This document shows, one piece after another, positions 1 through 58,401 of a stretch of DNA of 64,000 nt. A program made the translations under genes and the position numbers. Source of the DNA: Flavobacteriales bacterium (GTDB lineage Bacteria > Bacteroidota > Bacteroidia > Flavobacteriales_F > PHOS-HE28); the NCBI GenBank assembly GCA_016715895.1, contig JADJXH010000004.1:287522-351521 (forward strand), read 5' to 3'. Numbering within the stretch: position 1 is the first letter of the stretch; each line of letters opens with the position of its first letter. Below the pieces are notes generated by a model. That model was not told the DNA's origin. It saw only the letters and a list, made by a program, of their open reading frames with translations, and searched no databases.

Positions 1-68
1 GTAATCGGAAAGCGGATCATGACGGGCGGCTTCCCCAGTGCCCGGAAGCTCATACCTCTGGACCGAGG

Positions 69-1718: not shown

Positions 1719-1786
1719 GGCGGGATCGTTGGAGCCTCAAAGCTCCAGGGCGGGCCAGACGGGCACAATAGAACCTTCGTTGACGA

Positions 1787-2458: not shown

Positions 2459-2462
2459 CCCA

Positions 2463-9093: not shown

Positions 9094-9095
9094 TT

Positions 9096-9131
9096 CATGT
9101 GCACATGTGCTCATGAGCACATGTGCACATG
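9096..9131. terminator. Perfect 36-bp palindrome between the convergent moaA and NAP-like genes (candidate bidirectional terminator or protein-binding site)
   Basis: CATGTGCACATGTGCTCATGAGCACATGTGCACATG is its own reverse complement. It lies exactly between the moaA stop (9091-9093) and the minus-strand gene stop (9134-9136). Confidence 0.5.
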
Positions 9132-9133
9132 CC

Positions 9134-10156
9134 CTAGAGTTCCTGCTCGTAGTAGATCTTGTAGAACTTCCGGCCCTGGTCATCCACCCCCCGCTCGATC
9201 TTGTTGCGGTCGCCGTGGATGTAGATGTGGAAGTTCTTGTCCAGTTTCAGCACGCTCTTGAACACACGGGCCTGCTTCTTCACGGCGTCGGCGCTGATGG
9301 CGAAGCGGTCCTCCAGGTCCACGGCGCGCTCCTCCTGGAAGCGGTCGCCGAAGCGCTCGAAGGAGCCGATCACCTCCTCGCTTTGGAACACCTCACGGGC
9401 GAAGGAGCTCCGGTCGAACTCGGTGTTGTCCTTGAAGTACTGGACGGAGCGGTTCAGCAGGTCGATCTGGTCGGCCTTGGGGATCTCGTAGTCCTGCGGC
9501 AGTTGCTCGGTGATGAACGAGCGCGTCATCTCCAGCAGGTTATTGGTGCTGTTCACGTGGTCCTGTTTGGCACGGAGCCCGGCGAAGGCCTGCTGCCAGA
9601 ACCCGCTGCGCGGATCGTCATCGATCACCAGCACGGTGTGCTCACCCGGGGTGAAGAGCACCAGCAGGGCCTGGTCCGGCCTGCGCCCCCCCAGCCCGCG
9701 TTTGAGGCGCATGCCGATGTGGCCCCCACTGACCTTGCTCTCCAGGAAGACCTCCTTGTCGTCGAACTTGAGGATGCCCAGCGCATCATGCACCGCCCCG
9801 GCCAGCTCCACGGCGTGGAAGCGGACGACGAAGAGGTCACCGCCGCGCACCTCATGCTCCGCGGCGGTGTCGATGAGGAGCTTGGCGATGGCCCGGGACA
9901 CCCCGACCAGGTCCTTCGCCTTCGCCGCCTTGGCGCACAGGGCCTGAAGGGCATTGCCAGCACCCTGTGCTCCGTCGCCGAAGGTGTGGGTGACGGCCAC
10001 CGAGGCGAAGGGCTTCAGGAAGAGGCGGCGCAGGAACTCCTGCTCCTCGGGCCCCTGCAGCACGGCGCTCACGTCGGAGAGCACGCTGGGCGATCCATCC
10101 GTGCCCACCCGGTGCAGCACCAATTCCTCCACCATCGCCTCCTTGCCGTTGATCAT
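9134..10156 (-). CDS. Nucleoid-associated protein, NdpA/YejK-like (PF04245-type)
   Basis: 340 aa. Layout resembles NdpA ('ELVLHRVGT' near the N-terminus, 'GGDLFVVRFH' block, charged C-terminal half). The family call is from memory of YejK, not from a search. Confidence 0.45.
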   Translation of the reverse strand: MINGKEAMVEELVLHRVGTDGSPSVLSDVSAVLQGPEEQEFLRRLFLKPFASVAVTHTFGDGAQGAGNALQALCAKAAKAKDLVGVSRAIAKLLIDTAAEHEVRGGDLFVVRFHAVELAGAVHDALGILKFDDKEVFLESKVSGGHIGMRLKRGLGGRRPDQALLVLFTPGEHTVLVIDDDPRSGFWQQAFAGLRAKQDHVNSTNNLLEMTRSFITEQLPQDYEIPKADQIDLLNRSVQYFKDNTEFDRSSFAREVFQSEEVIGSFERFGDRFQEERAVDLEDRFAISADAVKKQARVFKSVLKLDKNFHIYIHGDRNKIERGVDDQGRKFYKIYYEQEL

Positions 10157-16165: not shown

Positions 16166-18979
16166 TCAGCGCACCGTCAAGCGGGTCACGCGCTGGCGAT
16201 CGGCGGAGGCGAGGCGGACGATGTACTGTCCTGCGGCCAGATCGCTCACATCGAAGGTGAGGCGTCCCGCGTTGCCGGCACCGCCCACACTGCGCACCAC
16301 ACGACCGCTGAGGTCGGAGACCTCGACGGTGACGCGGGCTTCGCTGGCGGGGAACACCACGGCCACGGACTCATCGGCCGGGTTGGGCATCAGCTGAAGT
16401 GCATCCGCACCATCGTTCTCCCCGATGCCCACGGAGCTCACGGTGACGATGGCCTCGGTGCGCGGGCTGGCGCAGTCCACGCCGAAGGCCTCCACCTGCC
16501 AGTCGTAGAAGAAGTAATAGTACTGCAGGGCGTTCTGCCCACCGATGTTGGTGCCGGTGATGGCGCCGAGGGTGCCCAGGGCGTAGGGGTACGTGGGATT
16601 GCTGCCGAGGCCGTCCCGCCACAGGTTCGGCGTGCCCACGCAGCGCAGGGCATAGTTCCCGGGGCCCGGCACTTCCAGGCCGAGGGTCACCACCTGAGTG
16701 CCGGTGGGGATGTTGGGCGTGACGCTGGCCACCGTGCTGTTGTCGCTCATGTCGATCACCGAGATGGTGCGCACACCGGCGGTGTTGGAGTAGACCTTCA
16801 CCGTGTTGATGGTGAAGCGCTCATACGCATCGAACAGCAGGTAGAAGCCATCGTTCTGGTGGTACTGACCGCTGGTGGTGTTGTCCACACGGCCTCCGCT
16901 GGCCGCGCCACCTCCGAAGGTGTTCACATCCTCGGCCCAGAAGCTGGTGGTGCTGTTCACGAAGGGCGTCGTCCACGTGTTGCCGCCGCCCAGTGCGGTG
17001 CCGCCGGAAGGCAGATCGTACCAGGTGATGGCCGCGCCCGTGGCACTGATATCGGCCGTACCCGGTCCCAGGATCGTGGCGCCCGTGGTGGCCGGTGCAT
17101 CAGGCGTGTCGATCACCTCCAGTTCCACAGGGGCGGAGGTGAAGTTGCCACAAAGACCGGCCACGGTCACCGTGATCGGTCCGTCCGCTGTGGCCTGCAC
17201 CGTCTGCGTGGTGGCGCCGTTGCTCCACGTGTAGCCGTTCGCCGGCGAACAGGTCAACTCCACCGCACCTCCCTCACAGAAGGTGGTCTCGCCGTTCACC
17301 GTCACTGTCGGCGTCTCATCGGGGTTCTCGGTGACGGTCACCGAGGCCTGGCTCCAGCAGCCCGTACCATCATCGATGGTCACCGTGTAGGTACCCCCTG
17401 CGGTGACGTCGATGCTCTGGGTGGTGGCGTTGGTGCTCCAGGTGTACTGGAAGCCGGGGTTCGCCGTGAGCGTCAGCGGGGTTCCGCCTGCGCAAACGAC
17501 CAGATCCCCACCCGCCGCGATCTCGGCCACCGGCGCGATGCAGATGCCTTCGAGGAGGGTGATGGTCTGGTCCGCGTCGATGTCGGTGTAGCTGTCCACC
17601 TCACCGCTGGGCCATTGCACGACCAGGCTGTCCACCTCGGTGATGGAACCGAGGCCGAAGTGGAGGGTGGCGCTGTTCACCACACCATAGCTCTCGCCGC
17701 TGCGCACCTCGCGCACCTGGATGCCCCAGGGGCCCCAGATCTTCACCTTGGCACCGATGGCCTCCTTGTTGCTCTGCACGCCCACCAGATCGATGTCCAG
17801 CCAGTGGTTCCCGTTCGGGGTGTTCATCCACAGCCGGTCGGGGAAGCTGGGGTCGCCGTCCACATAGGCATCCCCATAGCTGGCGTACACGTCCGTGAAC
17901 CCGTCCTCGTTGAGGTCGCCGAAGGCGAAGCTCAGCATGTTCTTGCCGGACGGGAACATGGAGGGCACCTCGGTGAACGTGCCGTCCCCGTTGCCCTTGA
18001 AGTAGTAGTCCGCCGAGCCGGTCATGATGTCCAGCCAGCCGTCATTGTCCAGGTCGCGGAACAGGCCCTGCAGGAAGAAGCCGGTGTAGGAGTCCAGGCC
18101 GCTGCCCGCCGTGACGTTCACGTAGTTGTTCGTGCCGTCGTTCTCGAACAGCATCAGCGTGGTGCTGTGGGTGGTGCTGAAGGCGTCGAGGTCGCCGTCG
18201 TTGTCGTAATCGCCGAAGTCGGTGGTCCACACCTGCTCGCGGTTCTGAAGACCGTAGTTGATGGCCAGGTCGGTGTAGTTGTTGTTGCCGTCGTTCACGA
18301 ACAGGCGGTCCCAGCGCCGGGGGTCGTTCGGGTTGTTCACGCCCTGGCGGCAGTGGCTGATGTGCAGGTCGATGTCGCCGTCGTCATCGAAATCGGTGAA
18401 CACGCTCGCGTAGTTCCCGCTCATGTCCGAGGCCGGGTTCGTGTTCCAGTCGATGAAGTTGCCATCGTAGAGCAGGTTCCCCGTGCCGTCGTTCATCCAG
18501 ATGTTGTTCGGACCCACATCGTTGCAGGCGTACAGATCGGCCCAGCCATCCCCGTTCATGTCGGCGATGCTCACACCCTGGTGGAAGATGGTGGGACCAT
18601 TGAGGTCGACGAGCTGGGACACGCCGCGCGAGGTGATGCGCAGGTACCGCGTGACGGACACGCCGCTCATGATGTCCTTGTGGCCGCTGCGGTCCATGTC
18701 CGCGATGGCCCAACCCCATTGGTTGCTGCCGTCCACCACCCCGTAATCGATCGTGGTGAAGGAGTGGTCGGGGTTCTGGTACAGGATGTACACATGCTTG
18801 CTCATGTCGAGCTGCACGATGTCATCCAGCCCGTCGAAGTCCATGTCCACCACGGCCATGCAACCTCCGCTGCTTGCGTTGTGCGACAGGTTGGTCGACT
18901 GGTTGGTGAACACGGGCTGCGCAAAAAGCCCGGTCGCGGACAACAGGAGCGCCGCCGCGGATGAGTAACGATGGACCAT
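16166..18979 (-). CDS. FG-GAP/VCBS (CRTAC1/ASPIC-UnbV-like) repeat protein with PKD-like modules and a type-A T9SS C-terminal sorting domain
   Basis: Signal peptide. Repeated 'DxDxDGxxD' FG-GAP calcium-binding loops (DFDDDGDIDL, DYDNDGDLDA, DLDNDGWLDI, DLNEDGFTDV). ASPIC/UnbV-like 'LWMNTPNGNHWLDIDLVGVQSNKEAIGAKV'. C-terminus 'LMPNPADESVAVVF...VEVSDLSGRVV...LAAGQYIVRL' is a canonical Por_Secre_tail. Confidence 0.8.
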   Translation of the reverse strand: MVHRYSSAAALLLSATGLFAQPVFTNQSTNLSHNASSGGCMAVVDMDFDGLDDIVQLDMSKHVYILYQNPDHSFTTIDYGVVDGSNQWGWAIADMDRSGHKDIMSGVSVTRYLRITSRGVSQLVDLNGPTIFHQGVSIADMNGDGWADLYACNDVGPNNIWMNDGTGNLLYDGNFIDWNTNPASDMSGNYASVFTDFDDDGDIDLHISHCRQGVNNPNDPRRWDRLFVNDGNNNYTDLAINYGLQNREQVWTTDFGDYDNDGDLDAFSTTHSTTLMLFENDGTNNYVNVTAGSGLDSYTGFFLQGLFRDLDNDGWLDIMTGSADYYFKGNGDGTFTEVPSMFPSGKNMLSFAFGDLNEDGFTDVYASYGDAYVDGDPSFPDRLWMNTPNGNHWLDIDLVGVQSNKEAIGAKVKIWGPWGIQVREVRSGESYGVVNSATLHFGLGSITEVDSLVVQWPSGEVDSYTDIDADQTITLLEGICIAPVAEIAAGGDLVVCAGGTPLTLTANPGFQYTWSTNATTQSIDVTAGGTYTVTIDDGTGCWSQASVTVTENPDETPTVTVNGETTFCEGGAVELTCSPANGYTWSNGATTQTVQATADGPITVTVAGLCGNFTSAPVELEVIDTPDAPATTGATILGPGTADISATGAAITWYDLPSGGTALGGGNTWTTPFVNSTTSFWAEDVNTFGGGAASGGRVDNTTSGQYHQNDGFYLLFDAYERFTINTVKVYSNTAGVRTISVIDMSDNSTVASVTPNIPTGTQVVTLGLEVPGPGNYALRCVGTPNLWRDGLGSNPTYPYALGTLGAITGTNIGGQNALQYYYFFYDWQVEAFGVDCASPRTEAIVTVSSVGIGENDGADALQLMPNPADESVAVVFPASEARVTVEVSDLSGRVVRSVGGAGNAGRLTFDVSDLAAGQYIVRLASADRQRVTRLTVR

Positions 18980-28372: not shown

Positions 28373-29110
28373 ATGGCAATTATCAACACATCGACCGGGA
28401 TGGACCAGCGCTCGACGGCGGGCATCGGCCGGTGGGTGTTGGACGCCGTGGACCTGTTCCTGCCGCGCCGCTGCAGCGCCTGCGACCGTCCGCTGATGTC
28501 GCATGAGAAAGCCGTGTGTCTGCCCTGCGTGCACGACCTGCCGCGCACCGGCATGCACCTGCAGGCGGACAACCGGGTGGAGCGGCTCTTCCACGGCAAG
28601 GTGATGGTGGAGGCCGCCGCGGCCCTGCTCCAGTTCAACCGCCGGGGCCGCACCCAGCGGATGCTGCACCGCCTCAAGTACCAGGGTGACCACGCCGTGG
28701 GGCTCGAGATGGGCCGGTGGATGGCCGAAGCCCTGCGCGCCAGCCCCCGCTTCGCCACCGTGGACCACGTGATGGCCGTGCCGCTGCACCCGCAGCGGCT
28801 GCGCGAGCGCGGCTACAACCAGAGCCAGGTGCTGGTCGACGGCTTTCGCGAAGTGTGGCCCCTGCGCCTGCCCGACCAGGGGCTGATGCGCGTGGTGCGC
28901 ACCACCACCCAGACCCGCAAAGGCCGCTGGGAACGCTGGACCAACGTGAAGGAGGCCTTCGAGCTGGGCGATACCCGGTCGCTCGCCGGTGCGCATGTGC
29001 TGCTGGTCGATGATGTGGTCACCACGGGGGCCACCCTGGAAGGATGCATCCGTGCGTTGCTGCGCGTGCCCGACCTGCGGGTGAGCGTGTGCACGGCGGC
29101 GACGGCGTGA
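28373..29110 (+). CDS. comF: ComF-family protein (phosphoribosyltransferase domain; competence protein ComFC-like)
   Basis: N-terminal Zn-finger-like 'CSACDRPL...CLPCVHDL'. C-terminal PRTase motif 'HVLLVDDVVTTGATL'. Confidence 0.8.
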   Translation: MAIINTSTGMDQRSTAGIGRWVLDAVDLFLPRRCSACDRPLMSHEKAVCLPCVHDLPRTGMHLQADNRVERLFHGKVMVEAAAALLQFNRRGRTQRMLHRLKYQGDHAVGLEMGRWMAEALRASPRFATVDHVMAVPLHPQRLRERGYNQSQVLVDGFREVWPLRLPDQGLMRVVRTTTQTRKGRWERWTNVKEAFELGDTRSLAGAHVLLVDDVVTTGATLEGCIRALLRVPDLRVSVCTAATA

Positions 29111-29117
29111 GGGCGAT

Positions 29118-29352
29118 CAACCCATCACCGCAGGGCCTTCACCGATCGAACCGCACCGTTCGCTTCCTCCAAACGCGCCAGATACACGCCTGGTGCAGCT
29201 GCGGCCAGGTCCACCACGTGGCCGTCGCGGGCATGGCTTTGCATCAGCACCAAGCGGCCTTGCGCGTCCCACACGGCCAACTGGCCCACCACACCTGCCG
29301 GCAGCCGAAGCCGCCACTGGCCGGGCTCCAGGGGGATCAACCAGGGGGCTTC
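29118..29352. repeat. CTD-coding repeat copy A (~235 bp, ~80% identical to 30561..30795)
   Basis: DNA-level alignment, e.g. 'caccgcagggcctt[c/a]accgatcgaaccgcaccg...aacgcgccag[a/g]tacac...gggctccagggggatcaacca'. Confidence 0.8.
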
Positions 29353-30573
29353 GTCATCCTCCGCCGCTTCCATCACCGCCACCGGGGCGCTGCAATTCTC
29401 CACCTGGCCCAGCCACCGCGCCACGTGCCACAGGGTGTCGCCGTCGATGGTGATGAAACCGCCTGACATGTACAGCTCATCGCGCCACACGGTGAACCCG
29501 TTCGCTTTTCCACCCGGGGTTTGCATGGCATAGCTGCCCCCCAGGCCACACCAGCGGCTGCCGTCCCAGCGCGCGGCGTTCTCCGCCGGCACCCCGCCGG
29601 CGTAGTTGAACTGCCCGGCCACGTACAGGTCGCCGTTCCACGCGTGCAGGTCCAGCGCCACGCCTTGCGTGCTTGCGGGCAGCGCCGCCAGCAGCCCACT
29701 ACCCAGGGTCTGCCACTGGGTTCCGTTGAAGCGCGCCACCATGTTGCCCGGCGCTCCGCCCGCCTCGAAGAACCACCCGCACACGTACAGCCAGCCGTCC
29801 TTGATCAGCACGTCCTTGATCGGGTCCAGGGTGCTCCACCCCGGCACAGCCTCCCAGGCCGCGCCGTTCCAGCGCATGAAGCTGTAGTGCTGCCCTTGCA
29901 GGGGGTCGAAGAACAGGCCGGTGATGTAGGGCACGCCCTGGTACTTGAAGGCGAAGCCCACGTAGCTGGTGGGCCCGTGGTGCAGCACCGGCGCCCGGTA
30001 GGGGCTGGGCACGATGGTATCGCCCACGTAAGCGAACACGCAGCTGCTGTCGTAGCCGCACAGAGTGCCCCGGTAACCGGTGAGGTACATGGTGTCCTGC
30101 GGAAAGTGCGGCACCAGGGTGGCCATACCGCCCACGCCGGGGTTCACGCAGGGCAGGCGCTCCCACCCGTTGGTCTGCTCGTTCCAGCGGGCAAAGGACT
30201 CGTTCACCACCGAATCGGCGTCCCAAAAAACGAATGCACCATTTGCGTGCAAGCGGCCGTCGATCCGCATGAACTCGTACATGTTCGAACAAATATTCCC
30301 GCCACCACAAACGCCCACCGGAGCAGGCAGTGCAGACCAAGTTGCCCCGTCCCACATGGCCGCACCAGCGGTGTAGATCGAATCAGCCCCCACTACAGCC
30401 CACTTGAAATTGCCGCCAACTAAGAGCTTATCCCACACACTGTCCCCGTAAACCACATTCACCTGCGAGTGCAGCTTTGCCAAGGGCTGCAAGGGTGCCC
30501 AGTACTGCCCCATGCCCGCCGCTCCGGTACCGCACATCAGCAGCACCGCCAAGGTCCTGGCGCTCCTCATCAC
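29125..30573 (-). CDS. T9SS cargo protein (beta-propeller-like body, type-A C-terminal sorting domain)
   Basis: Signal peptide 'MMRSARTLAVLLMCGTGAAG'. W/G/Y-rich propeller-like repeats. Por_Secre_tail C-terminus 'APWLIPLEPGQWRLRLPAGVVGQLAVWDAQGRLV...APGVYLARLEEANGAVRSVKALR'. Overlaps the upstream cargo gene by 4 nt. Confidence 0.7.
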   Translation of the reverse strand: MMRSARTLAVLLMCGTGAAGMGQYWAPLQPLAKLHSQVNVVYGDSVWDKLLVGGNFKWAVVGADSIYTAGAAMWDGATWSALPAPVGVCGGGNICSNMYEFMRIDGRLHANGAFVFWDADSVVNESFARWNEQTNGWERLPCVNPGVGGMATLVPHFPQDTMYLTGYRGTLCGYDSSCVFAYVGDTIVPSPYRAPVLHHGPTSYVGFAFKYQGVPYITGLFFDPLQGQHYSFMRWNGAAWEAVPGWSTLDPIKDVLIKDGWLYVCGWFFEAGGAPGNMVARFNGTQWQTLGSGLLAALPASTQGVALDLHAWNGDLYVAGQFNYAGGVPAENAARWDGSRWCGLGGSYAMQTPGGKANGFTVWRDELYMSGGFITIDGDTLWHVARWLGQVENCSAPVAVMEAAEDDEAPWLIPLEPGQWRLRLPAGVVGQLAVWDAQGRLVLMQSHARDGHVVDLAAAAPGVYLARLEEANGAVRSVKALR

Positions 30574-30795
30574 CGCAGGGCCTTAACCGATCGAACCGCA
30601 CCGCTCACCTCCACCAAACGCGCCAGGTACACACCCGGTGCGCGGTCGGCCAGGTCCACCACATTCCCGTCCTGCGCCCTGGCGACCATCTGCACCAAGC
30701 GGCCCCGCGCGTCCCACAGCTCCAGGCGGCCCGCATGGCCCTGGGGCAAGCGTACCTGCCACCGCCCGGGCTCCAGGGGGATCAACCACGGGGCT
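30561..30795. repeat. CTD-coding repeat copy B
   Basis: See copy A. Covers the 3' end of the SBBP cargo gene plus a few nt of 3' flank. Confidence 0.8.
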
Positions 30796-33344
30796 TGGTC
30801 CTCAGGGGCTGTCTCGGACACGCTCAGGTTGGGCGAGAGCCCGAAGCTGCAGATAAAGCCATCGTGGCTGTGGCCGGGATGCGGGTCGGTGGCGAAGAAG
30901 TCGTCGATGGGGTTGTAGTAGTGGGTGTTGTTGGTGGAGATCCAGCCATAACCACCGCCCAGGTTGTTGGTGAGGTCGCCATCGTACCAATCCAGCGGAC
31001 TCAGGGGATCGAACTCGCGCAGGGGAAAGCTCAGCTGGTCGCTGATGGCGCCGCCGGCCAGGTAGAGCTCCGTGACGCTGGCGGCCACGCCCCAGCCACG
31101 ATCGGCGTGGATGCCGCCCCAGTAGGTGGTCCAGATGGGCTCCTGGGTGGCGCCGTTCACCGCCAGCACGAAGGCATCGCGCCGGTCGCCACCGAAGGTG
31201 CCCAGCAAGGGCTGGTCGTACAGGGTGCCCGCCCCGGCATGCCAGATGCCGGTGGCGCTGCCGGTCTCCCCGGTGGCGTATAGGCGGCAGCCGGTGCCAC
31301 CTGCGTTGCAGGCCGGGTCCACCTCCAGGTCCAGCACGGCATCGGGGCCCTCGCCGCCGTAGAGGCTACCCCAGAGCAGGGCGCTGTTGCCGTGGCCGAA
31401 CTTGAGCAGGTAGCCATCGCCCTGGCCACCGGGCACATCCTGGTGCAAGGCGATGGGACCACCGGCGGGCAGCTGGGCGGCGGTGAGGTTGGTGCTGCGG
31501 GTGGTGCCCCCCACCCAAATGAAGGTGCCGAAGGCCTCGCTGCTCATCACCTCCAAGGCAAGCCCCAGTTCGCGGCCATTGCCACCCCAGTAGGTACACC
31601 ATTCGATCTGGTAGGCGTCCAGGTTCAAGCGGTCCACATAGGCATCGCGCTGGCCGCCGCCGGGGGTGCCTTGGTAGAAGTCGGCCGTGCCGGGCAGGTC
31701 CACCACGTCCAGGGGAAAGAGCGCCGGGTCCGCCAGCCCCGCCGTGGTGCCGGTGAGGTAGGCGTAGCGGCCCTGGGTGGTGTTGAGCAGGCGCAGGTCG
31801 GCCAGGCCGGTGATCTCGCCCATGCTGCCGAAGGGGGTGCGCCACTCGGCCTGGTAAGCGCTGTTGAAGAGGGTGAAGAAGCCCCCGCCTACCGGCTTGC
31901 TGAAGGCGCCCGACGGCGTCACATACGGATAATCGTATTGCAAGGGGTCCAGCGGCGTCTCGCTCAGGCGGCCGCCCCAGGCCACGATCCCGTCCGCATC
32001 CACGTCCACGGCCATGCCTTCGGCCAGCCACACATCGCCCAGCGGGGCGCCGTGCGTGGTGCTCCAGTCCATGCGCCCATCCAGTTTCCGGAACGCGCTG
32101 AGGTAGGCGTTCGGCTTGGACCAGACCTGAACAGGATCGGTATCCGCATTCGCAAATGCCGATCCCGGCCAAGCTTGCAAAGGAAAATTCAAGCTCACCG
32201 TACTTCCGGTGACGAAGACATAATCCTTGTCGGTGTCGGGTCCGCGGTACACGGCCAGGTCATAGGCTTTGTCCAGGTCGGCCGCGCCGCCGCCGGCCGC
32301 GCCACCGCCCAGGTAGGTGGCCCATAGGATGCGCTTGGTGCTGCCCTCGAACTTCATCACCACCGCATCCTCGCCGCCCATCAGGTTGTCGAAGGCAGGT
32401 GGATAGAACTGCGTTCCCGTACCGATCGGAAAGTGCGACTCGTATGCATACCCGCAGACGTAGGCGTTGCCGTCCTCGTCCACATCAGCGGCGGTGAGCT
32501 CATCGGCATCGTTGCCGCCCACATAGGTGCTCCAGCCGAGGTTGCGCGGGTCGGTGGGTTCCCAGGCGCCCAAGGGCGGCGGGCCGATCTGGAAGATGAG
32601 GGGCAGGTGAATGTCGTAGGGGCCGAAGTCGAAGGTGACCTGCGTGCTGCCCTGCACGTGCTCGTACTCGGCGCTCCAATAAACTGGCACAATGGTCCCC
32701 TGGCCGTCCACTTGGAAGGCGATCGCCTCCTCCAAGCGGAGGAACTTCTCACCGAAGTACATGCGCAGGGCCCCTTGCCAGTCCACGTTCAGGCTGTCCT
32801 GCCCGGTGAACTGGAGGATGATCTGCCCGGGTTCGCTGCCCGGCTGGCACACGAAGGCCATCTTGGGCCCGGAGCGGCCGCCGTAGAAATGCTGGTCGAT
32901 CTTGGGGTACACCTCTTTCTTGATGATGCGGCCTTTGGGATGCAGTCCGGTGGTGGCCGATGTACACCAAGGGAAGTAGAAGTTCTGTACCCAAGGCAGT
33001 TCGGCCGCATGGCCGATGATCGGCTCCTCGTTCGCGGATTCTCCCACAAGGGCCAGCTCCACGGAGCGCAAGGTGTCCGGTGTGCTCGCTGAGGTGTCGC
33101 GTTGGGCGAGGACGAAGCGTGAGCGGGTACCGGTCTGCACATAAACGCGCGGCAGCGTGCCACCGGTGTAGGCGATCACATCCTCATTCACGCTGCCATC
33201 ATCGTTCAGGAGCTGCCCGGCGTTCAGGGTGTACCAAGCATTCCCCACGGTATCGCCGAAGAAATCGGGAACCTGTGCGCACAACGGGCCTGCGGCCAAT
33301 ATCCATGCAACAAGGAACGATACGGGTCGAAGTTGCTGTTCCAT
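30570..33344 (-). CDS. T9SS cargo protein with SBBP-like beta-propeller repeats and type-A C-terminal sorting domain
   Basis: Signal peptide. Repeated 'TYLGG...D.A.AVD..GN.YV.G.T.S..FP'-type (SBBP-like) units. C-terminal 75 aa nearly identical to the CTD of the downstream gene ('APWLIPLEPGRWQVRLPQGHAGRLELWDARGRLV...APGVYLARLVEVSGAVRSVKALR'). Confidence 0.7.
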   Translation of the reverse strand: MEQQLRPVSFLVAWILAAGPLCAQVPDFFGDTVGNAWYTLNAGQLLNDDGSVNEDVIAYTGGTLPRVYVQTGTRSRFVLAQRDTSASTPDTLRSVELALVGESANEEPIIGHAAELPWVQNFYFPWCTSATTGLHPKGRIIKKEVYPKIDQHFYGGRSGPKMAFVCQPGSEPGQIILQFTGQDSLNVDWQGALRMYFGEKFLRLEEAIAFQVDGQGTIVPVYWSAEYEHVQGSTQVTFDFGPYDIHLPLIFQIGPPPLGAWEPTDPRNLGWSTYVGGNDADELTAADVDEDGNAYVCGYAYESHFPIGTGTQFYPPAFDNLMGGEDAVVMKFEGSTKRILWATYLGGGAAGGGAADLDKAYDLAVYRGPDTDKDYVFVTGSTVSLNFPLQAWPGSAFANADTDPVQVWSKPNAYLSAFRKLDGRMDWSTTHGAPLGDVWLAEGMAVDVDADGIVAWGGRLSETPLDPLQYDYPYVTPSGAFSKPVGGGFFTLFNSAYQAEWRTPFGSMGEITGLADLRLLNTTQGRYAYLTGTTAGLADPALFPLDVVDLPGTADFYQGTPGGGQRDAYVDRLNLDAYQIEWCTYWGGNGRELGLALEVMSSEAFGTFIWVGGTTRSTNLTAAQLPAGGPIALHQDVPGGQGDGYLLKFGHGNSALLWGSLYGGEGPDAVLDLEVDPACNAGGTGCRLYATGETGSATGIWHAGAGTLYDQPLLGTFGGDRRDAFVLAVNGATQEPIWTTYWGGIHADRGWGVAASVTELYLAGGAISDQLSFPLREFDPLSPLDWYDGDLTNNLGGGYGWISTNNTHYYNPIDDFFATDPHPGHSHDGFICSFGLSPNLSVSETAPEDQAPWLIPLEPGRWQVRLPQGHAGRLELWDARGRLVQMVARAQDGNVVDLADRAPGVYLARLVEVSGAVRSVKALR

Positions 33345-33479
33345 GGTGATGCGGGTTGATGTCCCGAAAGTAAGGCCTGTTGATCACGAATGATCGACTT
33401 TTTATCCACCGTTCCTCGATCCATAACGACCGGTCCGCCCCACCCCGCCCCCTCAGATACCTTTGCGGCCCTTCCCCCT

Positions 33480-33968
33480 ATGGAGACCACGCTTTCACTG
33501 CCCGCCACCACGGACCGGGTGTCGCTCTACGCCGCGCTGATGCCCCAATTGCGGGCGCTGTTGGCGGAGGAACGTGACCCCATCGCCGCCATGGCCAACG
33601 TGAGCGCCGCCCTGCACCAGGCCTTCGGCTGGCATTGGGTGGGCTTCTACCGCGTGCTGGGCGCCGAGCTGGTGCTGGGTCCCTTCCAAGGGCCGGTGGC
33701 CTGCATGCGCATCGGCTTCGGCAAGGGCGTGTGCGGGGCGGCCTGGCAGCAGGAACGCACGTTGGTGGTGCCCGATGTGGAGCAGTTCCCCGGGCACATC
33801 GCCTGCAGCCCCCTGAGCCGGTCGGAGATCGTGGTGCCCCTGCGCGACCGGCACGGGCACGTGGCCGCCGTGCTCGACATCGACAGCAGCATGCTGAACG
33901 ACTTCAGCGAGGTGGATGCCCATGCCCTGGCGCAGGTGGGCGCCCTGCTGGAACCCCTCTTCGAATGA
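33480..33968 (+). CDS. GAF-domain protein, free methionine-(R)-sulfoxide reductase (MsrC/YebR-like)
   Basis: 162 aa. 'HWVGFYRV...ELVLGPFQGPVACMRIGFGKGVCGAAWQQERTLVVPDV...GHIACSPLSRSEIVVPL' matches the fRMsr GAF family, including its conserved Cys residues. Start trimmed to METTLSL. Confidence 0.75.
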   Translation: METTLSLPATTDRVSLYAALMPQLRALLAEERDPIAAMANVSAALHQAFGWHWVGFYRVLGAELVLGPFQGPVACMRIGFGKGVCGAAWQQERTLVVPDVEQFPGHIACSPLSRSEIVVPLRDRHGHVAAVLDIDSSMLNDFSEVDAHALAQVGALLEPLFE

Positions 33969-35674: not shown

Positions 35675-38600
35675 ATGATGATGCGATCCTTTCTGTGCGC
35701 ACTGCCCGTGGTGGCGGTGCTGAGCCTGGGCCAGGTCCATGGCCAGGGTGTGGTGCCTACGATGGGCAAGGAGTTCTGGCTCGGTTTCATGCAGAACTAC
35801 CAGGGCAACCCCACCCAGAGCCTGGACATCTTCATCAGCTCCCCCGTGGCCACGGTGGGCGTGGTGACCATGCCGCTCGTGGGCTGGACGCAGGCGTTCA
35901 ACGTGAGCCCGAACGTCACCACCACCGTGACGATCCCCATCGCCACTGCGATGCACTATCAATCGGACATCATCGACAACAAGTCGGTGCTGGTGCAGAC
36001 GCAGGACACGGTGGCGGTGTTCGCCATCAACTTCGAGCAGTACACGGCGGACGGCACCACGGTGTATCCTGTGCAGTCCCTGGGCACCGAATACCGGATC
36101 CACGCGTATGGCGGTCTATCCGGTGTGGCCGGCCTCGCCTCCGAGTTCCTGATCGTCTCCACCCAGGATGACACCGAGGTGGAGATCACCACGACGGTGA
36201 ACACCGAGGGTGGCCACGTGGCCGGTGTGCCATGGACGGTGCAGCTGGACTCCGGGCAGACCTACCAGGTGAAGGCGGCAGGAACCAACGTCACAGACGA
36301 CTTCACCGGGACGACGATCATCGGGACGGCGCAGAGCGGTAGTTGCAGGCCGTTCGCGGTCTTCAGCGGTTCGGTGTGCACCAACATCCCCACCGGCTGT
36401 TACGCCTGTGACCACGTGGTGGAACAGAACCTGCCCAGGAACGTGTGGGGCCGGAAGTACTATTCCGTCCCCTACTCCACCACCACGGGCTACACATACC
36501 GCATCCTGGCCGATCAGAACGGCACGGTGGTGACGGTGAACGGTGGTCCGCCCATCAACCTGAACGCCGGACAGTTCACCGAGGTGAACGCTTACGGACA
36601 GGCGGCCTGCTTCGAGGGCAACGTGCCCTTCAGCGTGGCGCAGCTCATGGAGGGCATCACCTGCAGCGGCAACGGCGACCCTGCGCTGCTGATCCTGAAC
36701 GCCGAGGAGCAGCAGATCGACAACATCACCTTCAGCACGGTGTCGTCCACGGTGATCACGAACCACTACCTGAACATCATCACGGAGACGGCGAACATCA
36801 ACCAGGTCTCGCTGGACGGTGTGCTGGTGCCGGCGGCCAGCTTCACGGCCTACCCGGCCTGCCCCACAGCGGCCTATGCCAGCGTGCCCCTGACCCAGGG
36901 AAGCCACACGCTCACCTGCCCGGGTGGCCTGTCGGCCTATGTGTACGGCATGGGCAGTGCGGAGAGCTACGCCTACTCGGTGGGCTCCTTCACCCCGCTG
37001 CCGCCCATCAACATCGACTCGGTGTTCTGTGGTGTGGACAGCACCGGCACGCTGACCCTGGCCCCGCCCAACCCGCTCTTCAACCCGTTCTGGACGGTGA
37101 TCTCCGACCCGACGGACACCCTGCACTACGGGTTCTCCTACACCTTCACGCCCCCCGGTAGTGACGTGTACGTGGTCACGGGTTATGAGAACCTGAGCCA
37201 GTGCGAGGAGCAGTACTTCTTCAGCGTGGAAGTGGACACGCCGCCGCTGCTGACACCTACCGCCAATGGGGTGCCTTCACCGGCCTCGATCACGATCTGT
37301 GAGTATGAGACGGTGCAGTTGAACGTGGATGTGGACCCACCCGGCACCTACCTCTACAACTGGTGGCCGGACCCGCAGTTGAACGATGGATCGCTGCAGA
37401 ACCCGATCGCCACGCCCACGCAGAGCGGCTGGTTCTATGTGAGCGTGAGCACCCTGAACGGGTGCGCCGTGAGCCTGGACAGCGTGTACATCGACGTGAT
37501 CCAGGGCGACATCCTGCTCTACGAGGCCAGCACGGCCGTGGACGCCCTGTGCCTGGGTGATTCCTCGCAGCTGGACCTGCAGGTGCACCAGATCATCGCC
37601 GAGGACCCCTTCGACCTGGTGTTCTCGCCGATGTGGAGCTCGATCCAGGGCGGCACGATCAGCAATGCCTGCGGATCGGTGTTCGGCGATGCGCTCTATT
37701 TCGACGGCGTGAATCCGCGGCAGGCCACCACGGGTGCGATGAACGTGATCAACGGCGGCAGTGTGAGCTTCGCCATCAAGATCGGTGCGGCGGCCCCGCC
37801 CTGCGACGATGCGGACCCGGGCGAGGACGTGGTGCTGGAATACTCCACGAACGGCGGTGGTGCGTGGACCGTGATGGCCACCCTCTGGGAGTACCTCTAC
37901 CCGAACTTCACCACGGTGAGCTACCCCATTCCCCCTGCCGCGCAGACGGGAGCCACCCTCTTCCGTTGGCGGCAGCTGGCCAGCAGCGGCCCCGGCAACG
38001 ACAACTGGAGCCTGGACAACGTCGCCATCGGCGCCCAAGGCACCACGGGGCTCACGATCAACTGGTCGCCCGCCGCCACCCTCAGCGCGGCGAACATCAC
38101 CAACCCGATGGCCTACCCCACCAGCACGGGGTGGTACTATGTGCAGAGCACGCTCACCGGCACCCAGTGCAGCTATCAGGACTCGGTGTACATCGAGGTG
38201 GGTGCGCCGTTCAGCATCGCCATGACCCCGGACACCGCGATCTGCGACCTGGGCGGCATCCAGCTCGATGCAGCGCCGAGCTCGGGCACCAACCACACCT
38301 GGACGTGGACCCCGAACAACGGCACGCTCTCGGCCACCTTCGTCCAATCACCCATCGCCACACCGGCCACCACCACGGAGTACTTCGTGACGGTGACCAC
38401 CGGCCAGGGCTGCAGCGCCACCGACAGCGTGACCATCACCGTGAACCAACTGCTGGGGCTGACGATCACCACACCGGATGACGACCTGTGCCAGGGGGAA
38501 AGCACCCTGCTCGATGCCACCATCGCCGGCAACACCACCAACCTGGTGTACAGCTGGACGCCTGCCGGCTCGTTGAGCGACGGCACCGTGCAGGATCCCA

Positions 38601-40282
38601 CGGCCACGCCGTTGACCACCACCACCTATGTGCTGGCCGTCACGGACACCATCAGTGGATGCGTGCTGACGGAGGACATTGACATCACGGTGAGCACGGC
38701 CTACGTGGTGGAGGCCACCCCGGACACCTCGCTCTGCGATCCGGTGGGCTTCGTCCTTGACGTGCAGCACAACGTGCCGGGGGCCATCATCAGCTGGACC
38801 CCGACGAACCAGCTCGTGGGGGCCAACACCGCGAACCCGGTGATCACGTTCGACTCCACCGCCCAGTACATCGTGGTGGTGCAGGATGCCCTAGGCTGTT
38901 CGGCCCGTGACACGGTGAACATCAACGTTCCTTTCGACGACCTCACCTTCATCTCCGACTCGTCGCTGTGCGCGGGCCAGAGCATGGTGATCGATGCAGG
39001 ATACCCGGGCAGCACGTATGCCTGGAGCACCACCGCCACCACACAGAGCATCACCGTCTCCGCAGCGGGCGCCTACACCGTGGTCATCACCGACACGCTC
39101 GGCTGCCAGGCCACCTTCACCACCAACGTGACGGTGGACCCCCTGCCGGTGATCGTCCTCGGGCCTGACACCTCGCTGTGCATCGGACAGAACTGGACCC
39201 TGGACGCCGGCAACCCGGGCAGCCAGTACCTGTGGAACACCACGGCCGTCACGCAGGCCATCACGGTGAGCACGAACGACCTGTACTGGGTCGAGGTGAC
39301 GGATGGGAACGATTGTGTGAACACCGACAGCATCAACGTCGTGTTCGACCCGCTGCCGGTGATCGACCTGCGCGACACCACGGTGTGCATCAGCGAGACG
39401 ATCACGCTGGACGCGGGCAACGCGGGCAGCAGCTACCTCTGGAGCACGGGTGAGACCACCCAGGCCATCCAGGTGGACAGCGTGAGCGCGACCTACTCGG
39501 TGGTGGTGACCACGCCCACCTGGTGCGTCGATTCCGCCGATGCGGTGATCGACATCATCCCCTTCCCCATCGTGGACCTTGGTCCGGACACGGCGCTGTG
39601 CGACACCGACACCATGGACCTGAACGCGGGCAACCCCGGCCAGGCCTACATCTGGAGCAACGGCGCCCTGACGCAGACGACCTTCGTCACCACCACGCAA
39701 CAGGTGTGGGTGGACGTGTTCAACGGGTATTGCACCACGCGCGACACCGTGGAGGTGGTCTTCAACCCCCTGCCGAACATCATCACCGAGGAGGAGCAGG
39801 TGATCTGCCTGGACCACTGGCCGAAGAAAACCCTCCTGGATGCCGGAAACCCCGGTTGCACCTACCTGTGGAGCACCGACGAGGAGACACAGACCATCGA
39901 GGTGAACACCTACGGCTGGTACATCGTGGACATCACCACCCCGCTGAACTGCACCATCACCGACTCGATCGAAGTGGTGGAGTACTGCCCTCCGCAGTGC
40001 TTCGTGCCGAACAGCTTCACGCCGGACGGTGACGGGGTGAACGACCTGTTCATGCCGAGCGGCTACAACATCGCCACCATGGAGATGAAGATCTTCGACC
40101 GGTGGGGCGAGGAGATCTTCGCCGGCAAGGATGCGGAAGTGGGATGGGATGGCAAGCGCAACGGCACGGACGTCCAGGACGGCGTGTATGTGTGGAAGCT
40201 GAAGTACCGCTTCATCGAGGACGTGAACGGCATGATCGGCGCGGAGAAGGAGAGCGTGGGCCATGTGACCCTGATCCGCTGA
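35675..40282 (+). CDS. Giant (1,535 aa) repeat-rich adhesin-like protein: IgGFc-binding-like N-terminal domain, ~10 tandem ~75-aa Ig/PKD-like modules, type-B T9SS (gliding-associated CHU_C) C-terminal domain
   Basis: Signal peptide MMMRSFLCALPVVAVLSLGQVHGQ. N-terminal 'GKEFWLGFMQNY...DIFISSP' domain. Modules of the form 'LDAGNPGS.YLWSTG.TTQ.I.V...G.Y.V.VT...GC...D.I.V.F.PLP...LG.DT..C'. C-terminus 'CPPQCFVPNSFTPDGDGVNDLFMPSGYNIATMEMKIFDRWGEEIF...GWDGKRNGTDVQDGVYVWKLKYRF' is a type-B sorting domain. Confidence 0.8.
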   Translation: MMMRSFLCALPVVAVLSLGQVHGQGVVPTMGKEFWLGFMQNYQGNPTQSLDIFISSPVATVGVVTMPLVGWTQAFNVSPNVTTTVTIPIATAMHYQSDIIDNKSVLVQTQDTVAVFAINFEQYTADGTTVYPVQSLGTEYRIHAYGGLSGVAGLASEFLIVSTQDDTEVEITTTVNTEGGHVAGVPWTVQLDSGQTYQVKAAGTNVTDDFTGTTIIGTAQSGSCRPFAVFSGSVCTNIPTGCYACDHVVEQNLPRNVWGRKYYSVPYSTTTGYTYRILADQNGTVVTVNGGPPINLNAGQFTEVNAYGQAACFEGNVPFSVAQLMEGITCSGNGDPALLILNAEEQQIDNITFSTVSSTVITNHYLNIITETANINQVSLDGVLVPAASFTAYPACPTAAYASVPLTQGSHTLTCPGGLSAYVYGMGSAESYAYSVGSFTPLPPINIDSVFCGVDSTGTLTLAPPNPLFNPFWTVISDPTDTLHYGFSYTFTPPGSDVYVVTGYENLSQCEEQYFFSVEVDTPPLLTPTANGVPSPASITICEYETVQLNVDVDPPGTYLYNWWPDPQLNDGSLQNPIATPTQSGWFYVSVSTLNGCAVSLDSVYIDVIQGDILLYEASTAVDALCLGDSSQLDLQVHQIIAEDPFDLVFSPMWSSIQGGTISNACGSVFGDALYFDGVNPRQATTGAMNVINGGSVSFAIKIGAAAPPCDDADPGEDVVLEYSTNGGGAWTVMATLWEYLYPNFTTVSYPIPPAAQTGATLFRWRQLASSGPGNDNWSLDNVAIGAQGTTGLTINWSPAATLSAANITNPMAYPTSTGWYYVQSTLTGTQCSYQDSVYIEVGAPFSIAMTPDTAICDLGGIQLDAAPSSGTNHTWTWTPNNGTLSATFVQSPIATPATTTEYFVTVTTGQGCSATDSVTITVNQLLGLTITTPDDDLCQGESTLLDATIAGNTTNLVYSWTPAGSLSDGTVQDPTATPLTTTTYVLAVTDTISGCVLTEDIDITVSTAYVVEATPDTSLCDPVGFVLDVQHNVPGAIISWTPTNQLVGANTANPVITFDSTAQYIVVVQDALGCSARDTVNINVPFDDLTFISDSSLCAGQSMVIDAGYPGSTYAWSTTATTQSITVSAAGAYTVVITDTLGCQATFTTNVTVDPLPVIVLGPDTSLCIGQNWTLDAGNPGSQYLWNTTAVTQAITVSTNDLYWVEVTDGNDCVNTDSINVVFDPLPVIDLRDTTVCISETITLDAGNAGSSYLWSTGETTQAIQVDSVSATYSVVVTTPTWCVDSADAVIDIIPFPIVDLGPDTALCDTDTMDLNAGNPGQAYIWSNGALTQTTFVTTTQQVWVDVFNGYCTTRDTVEVVFNPLPNIITEEEQVICLDHWPKKTLLDAGNPGCTYLWSTDEETQTIEVNTYGWYIVDITTPLNCTITDSIEVVEYCPPQCFVPNSFTPDGDGVNDLFMPSGYNIATMEMKIFDRWGEEIFAGKDAEVGWDGKRNGTDVQDGVYVWKLKYRFIEDVNGMIGAEKESVGHVTLIR

Positions 40283-40329: not shown

Positions 40330-40402
40330 GCCGTTCCAGGCCGGGAACCTTGACGGGTGGATCCCGTATGCACGGCGCGAACCACCCCGCTCTTCGGTGG
40401 AC

Positions 40403-43400
40403 ATGACCGCCCGAACCCCCTTCCTGCACATGCGCCCGGCACTGGTCGTCGGCCTTGTCGTCCTGTGCCTGAGCAGTGCATCGGCCCAGGTCAACGGCCC
40501 GATGCCGACCCTCGGCACGGACCTGTGGACCGGCTTCATGCAGAACGCCTATGGTGCCCAGGAGACGCGGTTGTACATCAGCGCGCCCTCCGCCACCACT
40601 GGCACGGTGAGCATTCCCCAGACCGGCTGGAGCCAGGCCTTCAGTGTTCCGGCGAACGGGGTCGTGCAGGTGAACGTCCCCAACACCGCCGAACATGTCG
40701 GTTCCGAAACAGTGACCGGAAAAGGGGTCCGGATCCAGGCGGTCGCACCCGTGGCCGTCACCGCGGTGAGCTACCAGAGCTACACCCATGATGGCACCCA
40801 GGTGCTTCCGGTGGAAGCGCTGGGCACCGACTACTTCGCCGAGGCCTACCGCGGCCTCCCCGGGTTCAACGAATTCTACAAGAGCGAGCTGCTCATCGTG
40901 GCCACCACCGATGACACGGAAGTGGAGATCACCCCCAGCGTGAACACCGCCGGGGGGCGGCCCGCAGGCGTCCCCTTCACGGTGATGCTCGACGAGGGCC
41001 AGAGCTATCAGGTGCAATCGGCCCTGTCGTCGCTGGACCTCACGGGCACGCGCGTCCGGGCCACAGCGGCGAGCGGTCCCTGCCGTCCCTTCGTGGTGCT
41101 CAGCGGGAGCATGTGCGCCAATGTGCCGGTGGGCTGCCCGGCCTGCGACCACGTGGTGGAGCAGATGCTCCCACTGGAGCGCTGGGGCACCTCGTTCAAG
41201 ACCTTCCTGCCCGGCGGGATCTCCAATGCGACCGTGCGCGTCCTTGCCGGCCAGAACGGCACCAGCGTCACCGTGAACGGAGGCGCGCCCATCTCCCTGA
41301 ACGCCGGCCAGGCCCACGAACTGAACGGACTTGCAGGCACCGCGTGCATCAACGCGTCGGCGCCCGTCTCGGTGGTCGTCATCTATGAAGGGTACAACTG
41401 CGCCAACGCGGGCGACCCCTCGATGGTGGTGATCGAACCGGACGACCGCACGACCACCTCCACCACCTTCAGCACGGTGAGTTCGCCGCAGATCACCGGC
41501 CACCGGGTGGAACTGGTGGTGCCCACCGCCGTGGTGGGCCAGGTGGCCGTGGATGGCACAGCCGTGCCGGCCGGCAGCTTCACGGCCTTCGCCACGTGCC
41601 CCACCTGGTCGCATGCCAGCCGCACGATCACCTCGGGCACGCACCGCGTCACCGCTCCGCAGGGCATCCATGTGTACGCCACCGGCTTCGGCACGGGCGA
41701 GAGCTATGCGTTCAACGCCAACGCCACCGAGGTACCGGTGGTGGTGCAGGACTCGCTGCTGTGCGTGAACGGGCCGGTGACGTTGACCTCGCCCGAGCCC
41801 ATGGACAACCCGCAGTGGGAGGCCGCCAGCACACCGGGGGTGGTGCTCGCCAACGGGCTGAGCTACTCGTTCACACCCACCACCAACGACACGTACACGG
41901 TCTCCGGCACGGCACCGGGATCCACCTGTCCCCTGGAGTTCACGTTCCATGTCGGCATCCAGGTGCCCGTGACGGTGGAGGCCACGGCCAACGGAGGGAA
42001 CGCGGCCCAGATCTGCCAGTACCAGCCCGTGCAGCTCGGCACCACGCCGAACCTCGACCCCAATGCCTATGCGCTGAACTGGACACCGGCGGCCGTGGTG
42101 AGCGACCCCACCATCCCCGACCCGGTGGCCTATCCGATGACCACCACGTGGTTCAAGCTGAACGTGACCAGCCCACTGGGCTGCGGCAGCGCCACCGACA
42201 GTGTGCTCGTTCAGGTGACACCGAACACGGTGCACAGTGTGGAGGCCATCACGGCCGACAGCATCATCTGCCTGGGGGACGCGGTGCAACTGGGCACCCG
42301 CACGCAGCGGATGATCGGCTTCGACCCGTTGGACAACACCACCTCGGCGATGTGGGCCCAGGTGCAGGGCGGTGGCGTGAGCGGCACCTGTGGGGCGGTC
42401 AACGGCAACGCGCTCCTGTTCAATGGAACGGGCACGCGGCAGGCACGCACCACCCCCGCCAACGTGCCCCAGGGCGGCACCCTGATGTTCAGCCTGTGGA
42501 TCTCGGGCGGCACGGCACCCTGTGACGGTGCCGAACCCGGGGAGGACGTGGTGGTGGAATACAGCTTGAACGGGGTGGCCTGGACGGTGATCCAGACCTT
42601 GAACGAGTCGCAATACCCGGCCTTCACCCCGCTCACCCTGGCCATCCCGCCCGCCGCATGGTCCGCCGCCACGCACTTCCGCTGGCGCCAGCTGGCCAAC
42701 AGCGGTGCCGCGCAGGATGTGTGGGCACTGGACAACGTGACGCTCACCCGGGTGGACAACACCGGGGTGCCGCTCCTGTGGTCGCCTGGCGCCACGCTGA
42801 ACGATCCGACGAGCGCGAGCCCGGTGGCCACACCCCTGGCCGACACCTGGTACACCGTGGAGGCCACCAGCGGAACGGGATGCACGGTCAGCGATCCGGT
42901 GTTCGTCCAAGTGGCCCCGGCCTTCACCATCAACGCCGGGAATGACGTGCTGCTCTGCGGCGGCGGACAGATCCAGCTGCAGGCCACCGCCAGTTCCGGC
43001 CAGGGCATCCAATGGAGCTGGGCCCCGAACAACGGAAGCCTGAACAGCACGACCATCGCTGCGCCCATGGCCAGCCCCACCGCCACCACGACCTACACCG
43101 CCACGGCCACCAGCAGCATCGGATGCACGGCGAGCGATGCGGTGACCGTGACGATGGGGCCCCAATTGGGCCTCAGCCTCAGCGCCAGTGACCTCACGCT
43201 GTGCCAGGGGGAGAGCAGCCAGTTGAACGCCGTGATGCAGGGCACAGGGACCTTGCAGCTCCTCTGGAACAACGCCGGCAGCCTCAGCAGCGCCACCGCC
43301 CCGAACCCTGTGGCCACGCCAAGCGGGACGACCACCTACACGGCCACCCTCACGGACACGCAGACCGGCTGCAGCACCCAGGCCTCGATCACGATCGCGG

Positions 43401-58124: not shown

Positions 58125-58401
58125 GGCAACAGGGTTTGCCGCCAACCTATCGGAAGGTGAAGCGACCCGCATGCGCCGATCGACGGAAGGCGGTATCGGT
58201 TCAGGGACCGGTGCGGGAGAACGGCTCAGCTGCGCTCCCCGGTTGCGCCGGGCACCAGCACAAAGACCACCTCGACCTCTTTGCCGGCCGTGGTGCCGCT
58301 CTCGAAAGGAACATGGGCCATGCCGTTGCGATCGATGCGCAGCACATTGCCCACGATGGTGAGGGCCCGGTAAGAGGGAATGACGGCGGCGGGTGCGTGC
58401 A

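Follow-up and report, generated by a model that had tools for sequence, protein, structure and literature searches.

Duplicated sequences in bacteria can evolve in concert through RecA-dependent gene conversion, the tufA/tufB genes of Salmonella being an example. In the type IX secretion system (T9SS) cargo of Porphyromonas gingivalis, the adhesin modules of RgpA, Kgp and HagA have undergone domain rearrangement and allelic exchange, with the C-terminal sorting domain (CTD) treated as simply conserved (Dashper et al. 2017, PMC5266723). This was the only paper that our literature search returned on gene conversion or concerted evolution of T9SS CTDs, and none was found on DUF7948, a domain of one of the proteins described below. 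We have analysed a 64,000-nucleotide (nt) stretch of DNA from a Flavobacteriales bacterium (assembly GCA_016715895.1, contig JADJXH010000004.1, positions 287,522 to 351,521 of the forward strand), hereafter called the window, in which two adjacent genes, A and B, code for putative T9SS cargo proteins with unrelated bodies but related CTDs. The best overall explanation for the history of these CTDs, to which we assign a probability of about 0.8, is that CTD-limited gene conversion took place between the neighbours B and A in the clade of the window.

As with tufA/tufB, paralogous segments are found to be closer than orthologues, replacement would run in one direction only, and no tract extends past the homologous stretch. 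Here, however, only a 0.23-kb domain segment is homologous, and homogenisation is incomplete and has lapsed in the window genome. Gene conversion between bacterial paralogues is well known, and the A/B case is a further instance of it that involves no new mechanism. With the P. gingivalis case (PMC5266723) it shares recombined domain modules of T9SS surface proteins, groupings that conflict with those of the remaining gene, and a contribution from strain-to-strain exchange. In contrast with the adhesin modules, it is the sorting domain itself that is exchanged, between adjacent genes with unrelated bodies and in uncultured environmental Flavobacteriales.

Genes A and B are co-oriented on the minus strand, and the TGA stop codon of B overlaps the start of A (GTGA, or TGATG with an ATG at 30570). 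W_A and W_B denote the window genes; L1_B is gene B of the related locus L001, L2_A and L3_A are the A genes of L002 and L003, and L17_B is gene B of L017. All relatives are metagenome-derived, either metagenome-assembled genomes (MAGs) or metagenome contigs.

Gene B, 30570..33344, minus strand: 924 residues, with putative signal peptide, DUF7948, SBBP-type beta-propeller repeats and CTD (open reading frame and Pfam)
Gene A, 29125..30573, minus strand: 482 residues as listed, with DUF5122/Kelch-like beta-propeller and CTD (open reading frame and Pfam)
B-specific linker LSPNLSVSETAPED, 30804..30839, minus strand: adjoins the repeat upstream; 97.8% identical between W_B and L1_B, 44% between W_A and W_B
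Repeat copy 2, 30570..30803, minus strand: 'type 2' CTD (..RLELWDAR..ADRAPG..VEVSG..) of gene B plus its stop codon, which overlaps the start of A (blastn and repeat search)
Repeat copy 1, 29125..29358, minus strand: 'type 1' CTD (..QLAVWDAQ..AAAAPG..EEANG..) of gene A plus its stop codon (blastn and repeat search)

The first-pass annotation had reported a DNA repeat of ~235 bp at the ends of the two overlapping, co-oriented genes, and this repeat is indeed present. The repeat search delineated two in-register blocks, 29123-29226/30568-30671 (85% identity) and 29242-29358/30687-30803 (76%), each with a spacing of 1445 bp, and blastn merged them into a single 236-nt match of direct repeats (78.4% identity, E = 3.4e-48). 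No third copy was found by blastn in the 64-kb window. The 3′ edge of the repeat is the stop codon and its 5′ edge lies at the ED(E/Q)APW codons, directly upstream of which the linkers of the two copies are unrelated (44% nt identity). The mature parts of the proteins had been described as unrelated, which BLASTP bears out: similarity is confined to the C-termini (58 of 89 residues identical, E = 4e-32), and none of significance was found between the bodies. The description of the CTDs as near-identical in protein sequence was overstated, as their 74-residue cores share 72% amino acid (aa) and 76% nt identity, with 21 of the 74 residues differing. The longest perfect match between the two copies is 23 nt. 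The extension of the repeat past the stop codon was uninformative as a clue to the direction of copying; a 'TG' following the stop is common to W_A and L2_A and absent in L1_A and L3_A. A protein word search with the CTD alone gave no match even though an identical B protein is in the collection, reflecting the limits of the method for short queries.

The close relatives revealed mosaic genes. The type 1 CTD is found in gene A of the window, L001, L002 and L018, and the type 2 CTD in gene B of the window and of L017. In gene B of L001, the B-specific linker, 97.8% identical to that of the window, is followed by a type 1 CTD, which is 95-97% identical to the A-type copies and has 76.9% nt identity to its orthologue in W_B; the A and B CTDs of L001 share 93.8% nt identity. 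Between W_B and L1_B, 30 of 1178 body sites differ (2.6%), compared with 52 of the last 196 nt (26.5%; Fisher p = 1e-26). There are no differences from 233 to 196 nt before the stop codon and they are dense thereafter, the switch falling within the conserved APWLIPLEPG codons. At the 53 sites that distinguish W_A from W_B, L1_B matches the A type by 45 to 4 (p = 8e-10), and L3_A matches the B type by 34 to 14 (p = 0.006). The CTD of L3_A is type 2-like, being closer to W_B (85% identity) than to W_A, its orthologue by position (76%), and gene A of the window and of L003 differ at 68 of 726 body sites but at 53 of 222 CTD sites (p = 1e-7). A gene A with a type 2-like CTD is also present in L006, an independent assembly that reproduces L003 at 99.76% identity. 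Gene B of L003 has been lost except for a 114-nt CTD remnant, identical at 110 of 114 positions to the L003 A CTD and at 100 to W_B. The CTDs of L17_B and L3_A, identical to each other at 215 of 225 positions, both have 84-85% nt identity to that of W_B.

Both genes carry one CTD type in the L001 and L003/L017 lineages, and the window is exceptional in having one of each. Paralogues are closer than orthologues, as concerted evolution predicts, in L001 and in L003 but not in the window pair (76-78%). The 5′ edge of every exchange tract is the end of the B-specific linker at 30804..30839. A plausible donor CTD adjoins the recipient in L001 and L003. Import of the cassette between lineages is also evident (dS 0.09 against 0.3-0.7), and the window's own pair may owe its state to either process.

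The two CTD segments are direct repeats with a spacing of 1.45 kb and unrelated flanks. As only the CTD segments are homologous, recombination between them would amount to non-reciprocal gene conversion, with heteroduplex and conversion tracts confined to the CTD. In the common ancestor of the clade, one CTD would have overwritten the other, and further CTD-limited replacements would have followed later in single lineages. The window genome would represent the least homogenised state, with type 1 in A and type 2 in B, 22-24% apart in DNA; given that the longest identical run is 23 nt, further conversion is probably inefficient there. The A/B cassette has also moved between related species by homologous recombination, and part of the mosaic may correspond to inter-genomic replacement with breakpoints at the CTD edges. 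The repeat, the identity of the domain, the conflicting phylogenies and the breakpoints are observations, whereas we infer that the mechanism is of the RecA type, which way each event ran and that the exchanges are functionally neutral.

We then compared the similarity of the two CTDs with what the domain family itself would give. Gapped global nt identity is unusable as a baseline at 66% G+C (GC), since shuffled sequences reach 72%, and ungapped nt identity, aa identity and blastn were used instead. A survey of the other type A CTDs of the window identified two canonical ones, with 27-34% aa identity to the A/B CTDs and no DNA match to them by blastn. The A homologues that are 46-57% identical to gene A have a DUF7948 gene next to them in all six contexts examined (L010, L011, L012, L013, L014 and L016), from which it follows that the A/B pair itself is old. 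In these six loci the A and B CTDs are 32-46% identical in aa, with no nucleotide repeat between them, and in the three distant genomes from which a single A and a single B were sampled, the CTDs cluster by gene family. In the clade of the window, by contrast, all CTDs of both genes form one tight clade with 70-97% identity, which suggests that one CTD replaced the other in the clade ancestor. Identities of 38-41% to outgroup A-type and 30-38% to outgroup B-type CTDs give a weak hint that it was the A CTD that overwrote the B CTD. A profile search of 1.84 billion representative proteins gave 53 matches in all at E <= 0.001, with gene B as the single strong one, and peptide-pattern scans of 185,579 species genomes and a metagenome collection located this CTD variant only at the A/B locus, in three related MAGs. 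The sequence comparisons support local exchange of the CTD, as opposed to generic CTD conservation. The first-pass idea of a CTD module exchanged between neighbours is thus upheld by the low identities of the other CTDs of the window and of the distant A/B pairs, the lack of a DNA repeat in the latter, the conflict between CTD and body phylogenies, and the breakpoints at domain edges.

A tandem array was observed at one of the distant loci (L012 1-7235, JGI Ga0335397_10008884), with a partial B, an A of 485 aa, a B fragment of 209 aa with CTD, an A of 487 aa, another B fragment of 209 aa and an A of 484 aa. Its units are 77-87% identical in nt, and the same CTD sequence occurs in two of the A copies; this locus has undergone amplification of the B-A cassette.

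The exchange had been called recent in the window genome, which is not what a synonymous/non-synonymous alignment of its two CTD copies indicates. With 53 of 222 sites differing, the non-synonymous (dN) and synonymous (dS) divergences are 0.218 and 0.51 (ratio 0.43), as large as between related species: the flanking genes of the window and its relatives have dS values of 0.28-0.78. The two CTD types therefore appear to be about as old as the species split. One codon, GTT in ..GCGGTTCGATCGG.. (29160-29170 and 30605-30615), is common to the A and B CTDs of the window and the A CTD of L018, where the other lineages have GTG; it could reflect micro-conversion within the species or be a coincidence. 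Values of dS did not decide whether W_B or L1_B has the derived CTD, as the ranges overlap over only 74 codons.

Recombination between lineages has been active at this locus. Between the window and L001, dS in the bodies of A and B is only 0.09, whereas by its flanks the window is closest to L003/L017, and these near-identical bodies with discordant flanks argue for a recent movement of the A/B cassette between lineages. Gene A contains a second, short mosaic tract.

Divergent patch in gene A, 30169..30393, minus strand: residues 61-135; dS between the window and L001 is 1.08, against 0.08-0.10 in the rest of A

In this patch 56 of 225 nt differ from L001, with the rest of the gene 97-99% identical, and dS relative to L003 is 1.10. 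The patch may have been acquired by recombination from a lineage that was not sampled, or it may correspond to a hypervariable blade of the propeller. In L018 (positions 1-4015, JGI Ga0394881_0047463), the flanks, i.e. comF-like, coiled-coil and large outer-membrane-like genes, are 96-100% identical to those of the window. Gene A of L018 is itself a mosaic, with the first 400 nt at 76-84% identity to the window (nearer L003), the next 400 at 98-99% and the remainder at 84-90%. Such a mosaic amid near-identical flanks suggests that gene A is a strain-level recombination hot spot. A central patch in the L018 CTD was considered as a short B-to-A conversion and rejected, since it matches W_B at 21 and W_A at 19 of 30 positions and rather represents a variable loop.

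Other rearrangements were observed around the pair. At 8614-8819 of L003, and at the same coordinates of L006, B is deleted, and ~100 nt of unique sequence and the 114-nt CTD remnant lie directly upstream of A; since the sister L017 keeps the full 924-aa B, the deletion is recent. In L002 and L005, a remnant of an IS30-type transposase (MSHITDEQRCIIQRMKKAGRQQKQIAEAIGKSASAVSRELRRN..., recognised by eye) replaces B and the first ~150 codons of A at ~8700-9265, and the 3′ two-thirds of A are still 95-99% identical to the window. Positions 1-2200 of L001 consist of DNA of ~50% GC, as judged by eye (66-68% in the loci of the clade), unrelated to the window and joined inside B at window position ~31945; either the scaffold is chimeric or foreign DNA, possibly phage-like, has been inserted.

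Several other explanations were weighed against CTD-limited conversion. If the T9SS of this lineage constrained all CTDs, they would resemble each other without any exchange, and a CTD subfamily that lacks the PNP motif and has a W after the first strand is indeed common to A-family and B-family homologues across many high-GC Flavobacteriales. Such constraint would however act on the canonical CTDs of the same window (27-34%) and on the outgroup A/B pairs (32-46%) as well, and it accounts neither for similarity that extends to synonymous sites nor for the conflict between the CTD and body trees; we consider it highly improbable. Even less credit can be given to a recent tandem duplication or fusion in the window genome as the source of the second CTD. 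Direct repeats in adjacent genes that end exactly at the stop codons are what it would leave, but the copies differ too much for it (dS 0.51, dN 0.218), the flanks were not co-duplicated, linkers and bodies being unrelated, both families have CTDs in all relatives and outgroups, and the adjacency of A and B is old. All the homologues examined, of the A family and of the B family alike, already have such a CTD at their end, and the first-pass proposal of an origin by fusion of one CTD to different bodies is thus not supported. False mosaics might also have been created in the relatives by assembler path switches at k-mers shared by the CTDs, all of these being MAG or metagenome contigs and L001 having a probable chimeric join inside B. 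This is improbable in view of the recurrence of the L003 arrangement in L006 and L017 and among cluster members from NCBI, JGI, ENA and Logan. Moreover, L1_B differs from L1_A at 14 positions and so is no mere copy of it, the assembler would have had to switch paths twice and in the right order, and the window is identical in three runs.

The closest competitor, which we regard as possible at somewhat less than even odds, combines lineage-specific alleles with patchy import and needs no conversion in the window's own history. Type 1 would be the homogenised CTD of L001/L002 and type 2 that of the window, L003 and L017; the window would have acquired, in short patches from a donor resembling L001, the body of B as well as A with a type 1 CTD, while the type 2 CTD native to its B stayed in place. 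The body dS of 0.09 between the window and L001, far below that of the flanking genes (0.28-0.68), is in line with such an import, as are the proximity of the flanks to L003/L017 and the dS of 0.51-0.79 between types 1 and 2, which fits divergence between lineages. W_B and L17_B have a dS of 0.285 in the CTD and 0.572 in the body, a contrast that is drawn from 74 codons only. Other ~225-nt foreign patches in A, and the differently mosaic A of L018, by its flanks a near-identical strain, agree with patchy import too. Nevertheless, it calls for a ~200-nt native island between two imported stretches, and it still requires intragenomic homogenisation in each lineage, so that it refines CTD-limited conversion rather than replaces it. 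For the mix of types in the window, conversion of L001 B after transfer of the cassette is possible, and the data lean slightly towards import by the window of the B body and A in patches with retention of the native B CTD, because L1_B is not nearest L1_A and because of the W_B/L17_B contrast just mentioned. By either route, a CTD-bounded replacement happened, and intragenomic homogenisation is still needed for L001 and L003/L017.

A number of points weigh against CTD-limited conversion as the general explanation. The L001 case is one MAG scaffold with a suspicious join to ~50% GC DNA 1.1 kb upstream, and L1_B is nearest not to L1_A (14 differences) but to L2_A (7). The window itself is without sign of recent conversion at a dS of 0.51, the one shared synonymous GTT being the only hint. 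About five lineages were sampled, and the search for further copies in the source genome covered the window. Lastly, recombination between lineages could mimic some of the sequence patterns without an intragenomic step.

These results indicate that, as a module, the T9SS sorting domain evolves independently, with a history decoupled from that of the exported protein and breakpoints at the domain edges. Experiments have shown CTDs to be transplantable between cargo proteins, with which this module behaviour agrees. A word of caution follows: CTD sequences are unsafe for inferring cargo orthology. The tag swap had been put forward as a route by which new T9SS substrates are recruited, but the A/B exchange shows no such recruitment: because all A/B homologues already end in a CTD, it is a like-for-like replacement. 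More speculatively, and in our opinion unlikely, the CTD repeat, a conserved block of ~230 bp that closes each cargo gene on its 3′ side, may act as a portable homology arm by which cargo bodies or whole cassettes are swapped between related species and tags are re-matched within a genome. T9SS surface repertoires would thereby diversify by CTD-anchored recombination, with homogenisation of the B and A tags perhaps selected through export and processing of the two proteins as a pair.

The A and B CTDs are divergent members of the type A family (TIGR04183/PF18962), to which the RemA and NucA CTDs of Flavobacterium johnsoniae on the SprA translocon belong (PDB 8GL6, 8GLK). They share with these the C-terminal site, a length of ~75 residues, a predicted seven-strand immunoglobulin (Ig)-like sandwich and profile-level homology to canonical CTDs. 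Unlike canonical type A CTDs, both copies score below the cutoffs of the hidden Markov models, and the usual N-terminal PNP motif is replaced by PLEPG.W. With TIGR04183 (cutoff 23 bits) the A and B CTDs score 19.4 and 14.9 bits, and with PF18962 (cutoff 27) the A CTD alone scores 16.3 bits. PF18962 is still the top or only family match; it is the commonest Pfam match for 15 of the 15 CTDs tested (best E = 1.6e-6). The distant gene A homologues of low-GC Bacteroidota have canonical PF18962-positive CTDs in the same position, and alignment of the clade CTD profile with these by hhalign gave a probability of 97.7% (E = 2e-12). The AlphaFold2 model of the gene A CTD has seven strands, a predicted local distance difference test score (pLDDT) of 91.4 and a domain that reaches the last residue. 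Its top three Foldseek matches in the PDB are 8GLK_D, 8GL6_D and 8GL8_D, with template-modelling (TM) scores of 0.76-0.80, all of them substrate CTDs bound to the F. johnsoniae T9SS translocon; the mirolase CTD comes further down the list, and the E-values, at 2e-3, are as weak as a small Ig fold would lead one to expect. On the basis of these profiles and models, we regard A and B as putative T9SS cargo whose type A tag is divergent. Other matches of the CTD profile are giant proteins of 1351-3694 aa (P0002-P0006), which have 5-13 internal copies of the same Ig-like module, indicating that the fold serves as an internal repeat elsewhere.

In Pfam searches, gene B matches PF25778 (DUF7948, E = 5.7e-19) and PF06739 (SBBP), and an identical protein is found in public collections under the name 'SBBP repeat-containing protein [Flavobacteriales bacterium]'. 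Gene A scores 26.1 bits with PF17164, marginally below the cutoff of 27; its homologues match PF17164, PF12768 or PF19565, and distant ones PF18962. The start of gene A is probably the conserved ATG at 30570, giving 481 aa; deposited forms begin at later codons than the listed one, with 481 (NCBI MBK9274857.1) and 475 aa. By inspection, putative N-terminal signal peptides were recognised in gene B (MEQQLRPVSFLVAWILAAGPLCAQ) and gene A (MRSARTLAVLLMCGTGAAGMGQ). The window is itself part of a Flavobacteriales MAG, and the same 23 kb were recovered from three independently assembled sequencing runs at 99.99-100% identity. A scan of 28900-33700 for promoters and terminators detected no promoter-like sites, and the terminator-like sites were not clearly above shuffled expectation. 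B and A are best explained as two translationally coupled genes for predicted T9SS-secreted beta-propeller proteins, conserved as a pair in a high-GC Flavobacteriales clade.

The window also encodes other predicted T9SS cargo, of type A and type B, that scores above the cutoffs.

16166-18979, minus strand: canonical type A cargo gene
56289-58172, minus strand: canonical type A cargo gene (TIGR04183 scores of 46.9 and 38 bits for this and the preceding gene)
35675-40282, plus strand: type B cargo, giant paralogue, one of an adjacent pair (1535 and 1669 aa), with TIGR04131, IgGFc-binding-like and CHU_C Pfam matches
40397-45406, plus strand: type B cargo, the other giant paralogue of this pair, with TIGR04131, IgGFc-binding-like and CHU_C Pfam matches

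No T9SS core machinery gene was identified in the window. The 1010-aa protein encoded at 60617-63649 on the plus strand, which may be a T9SS-related beta-propeller, has a partial PorZ-like match (NF052228, residues 200-306) that scores 74.8 bits where the cutoff is 260. The type B sorting domains of the window score 49 and 58.3 bits with TIGR04131, and in the loci of the relatives the downstream paralogue begins with a segment to which the 35675-40282 protein is 45% identical.

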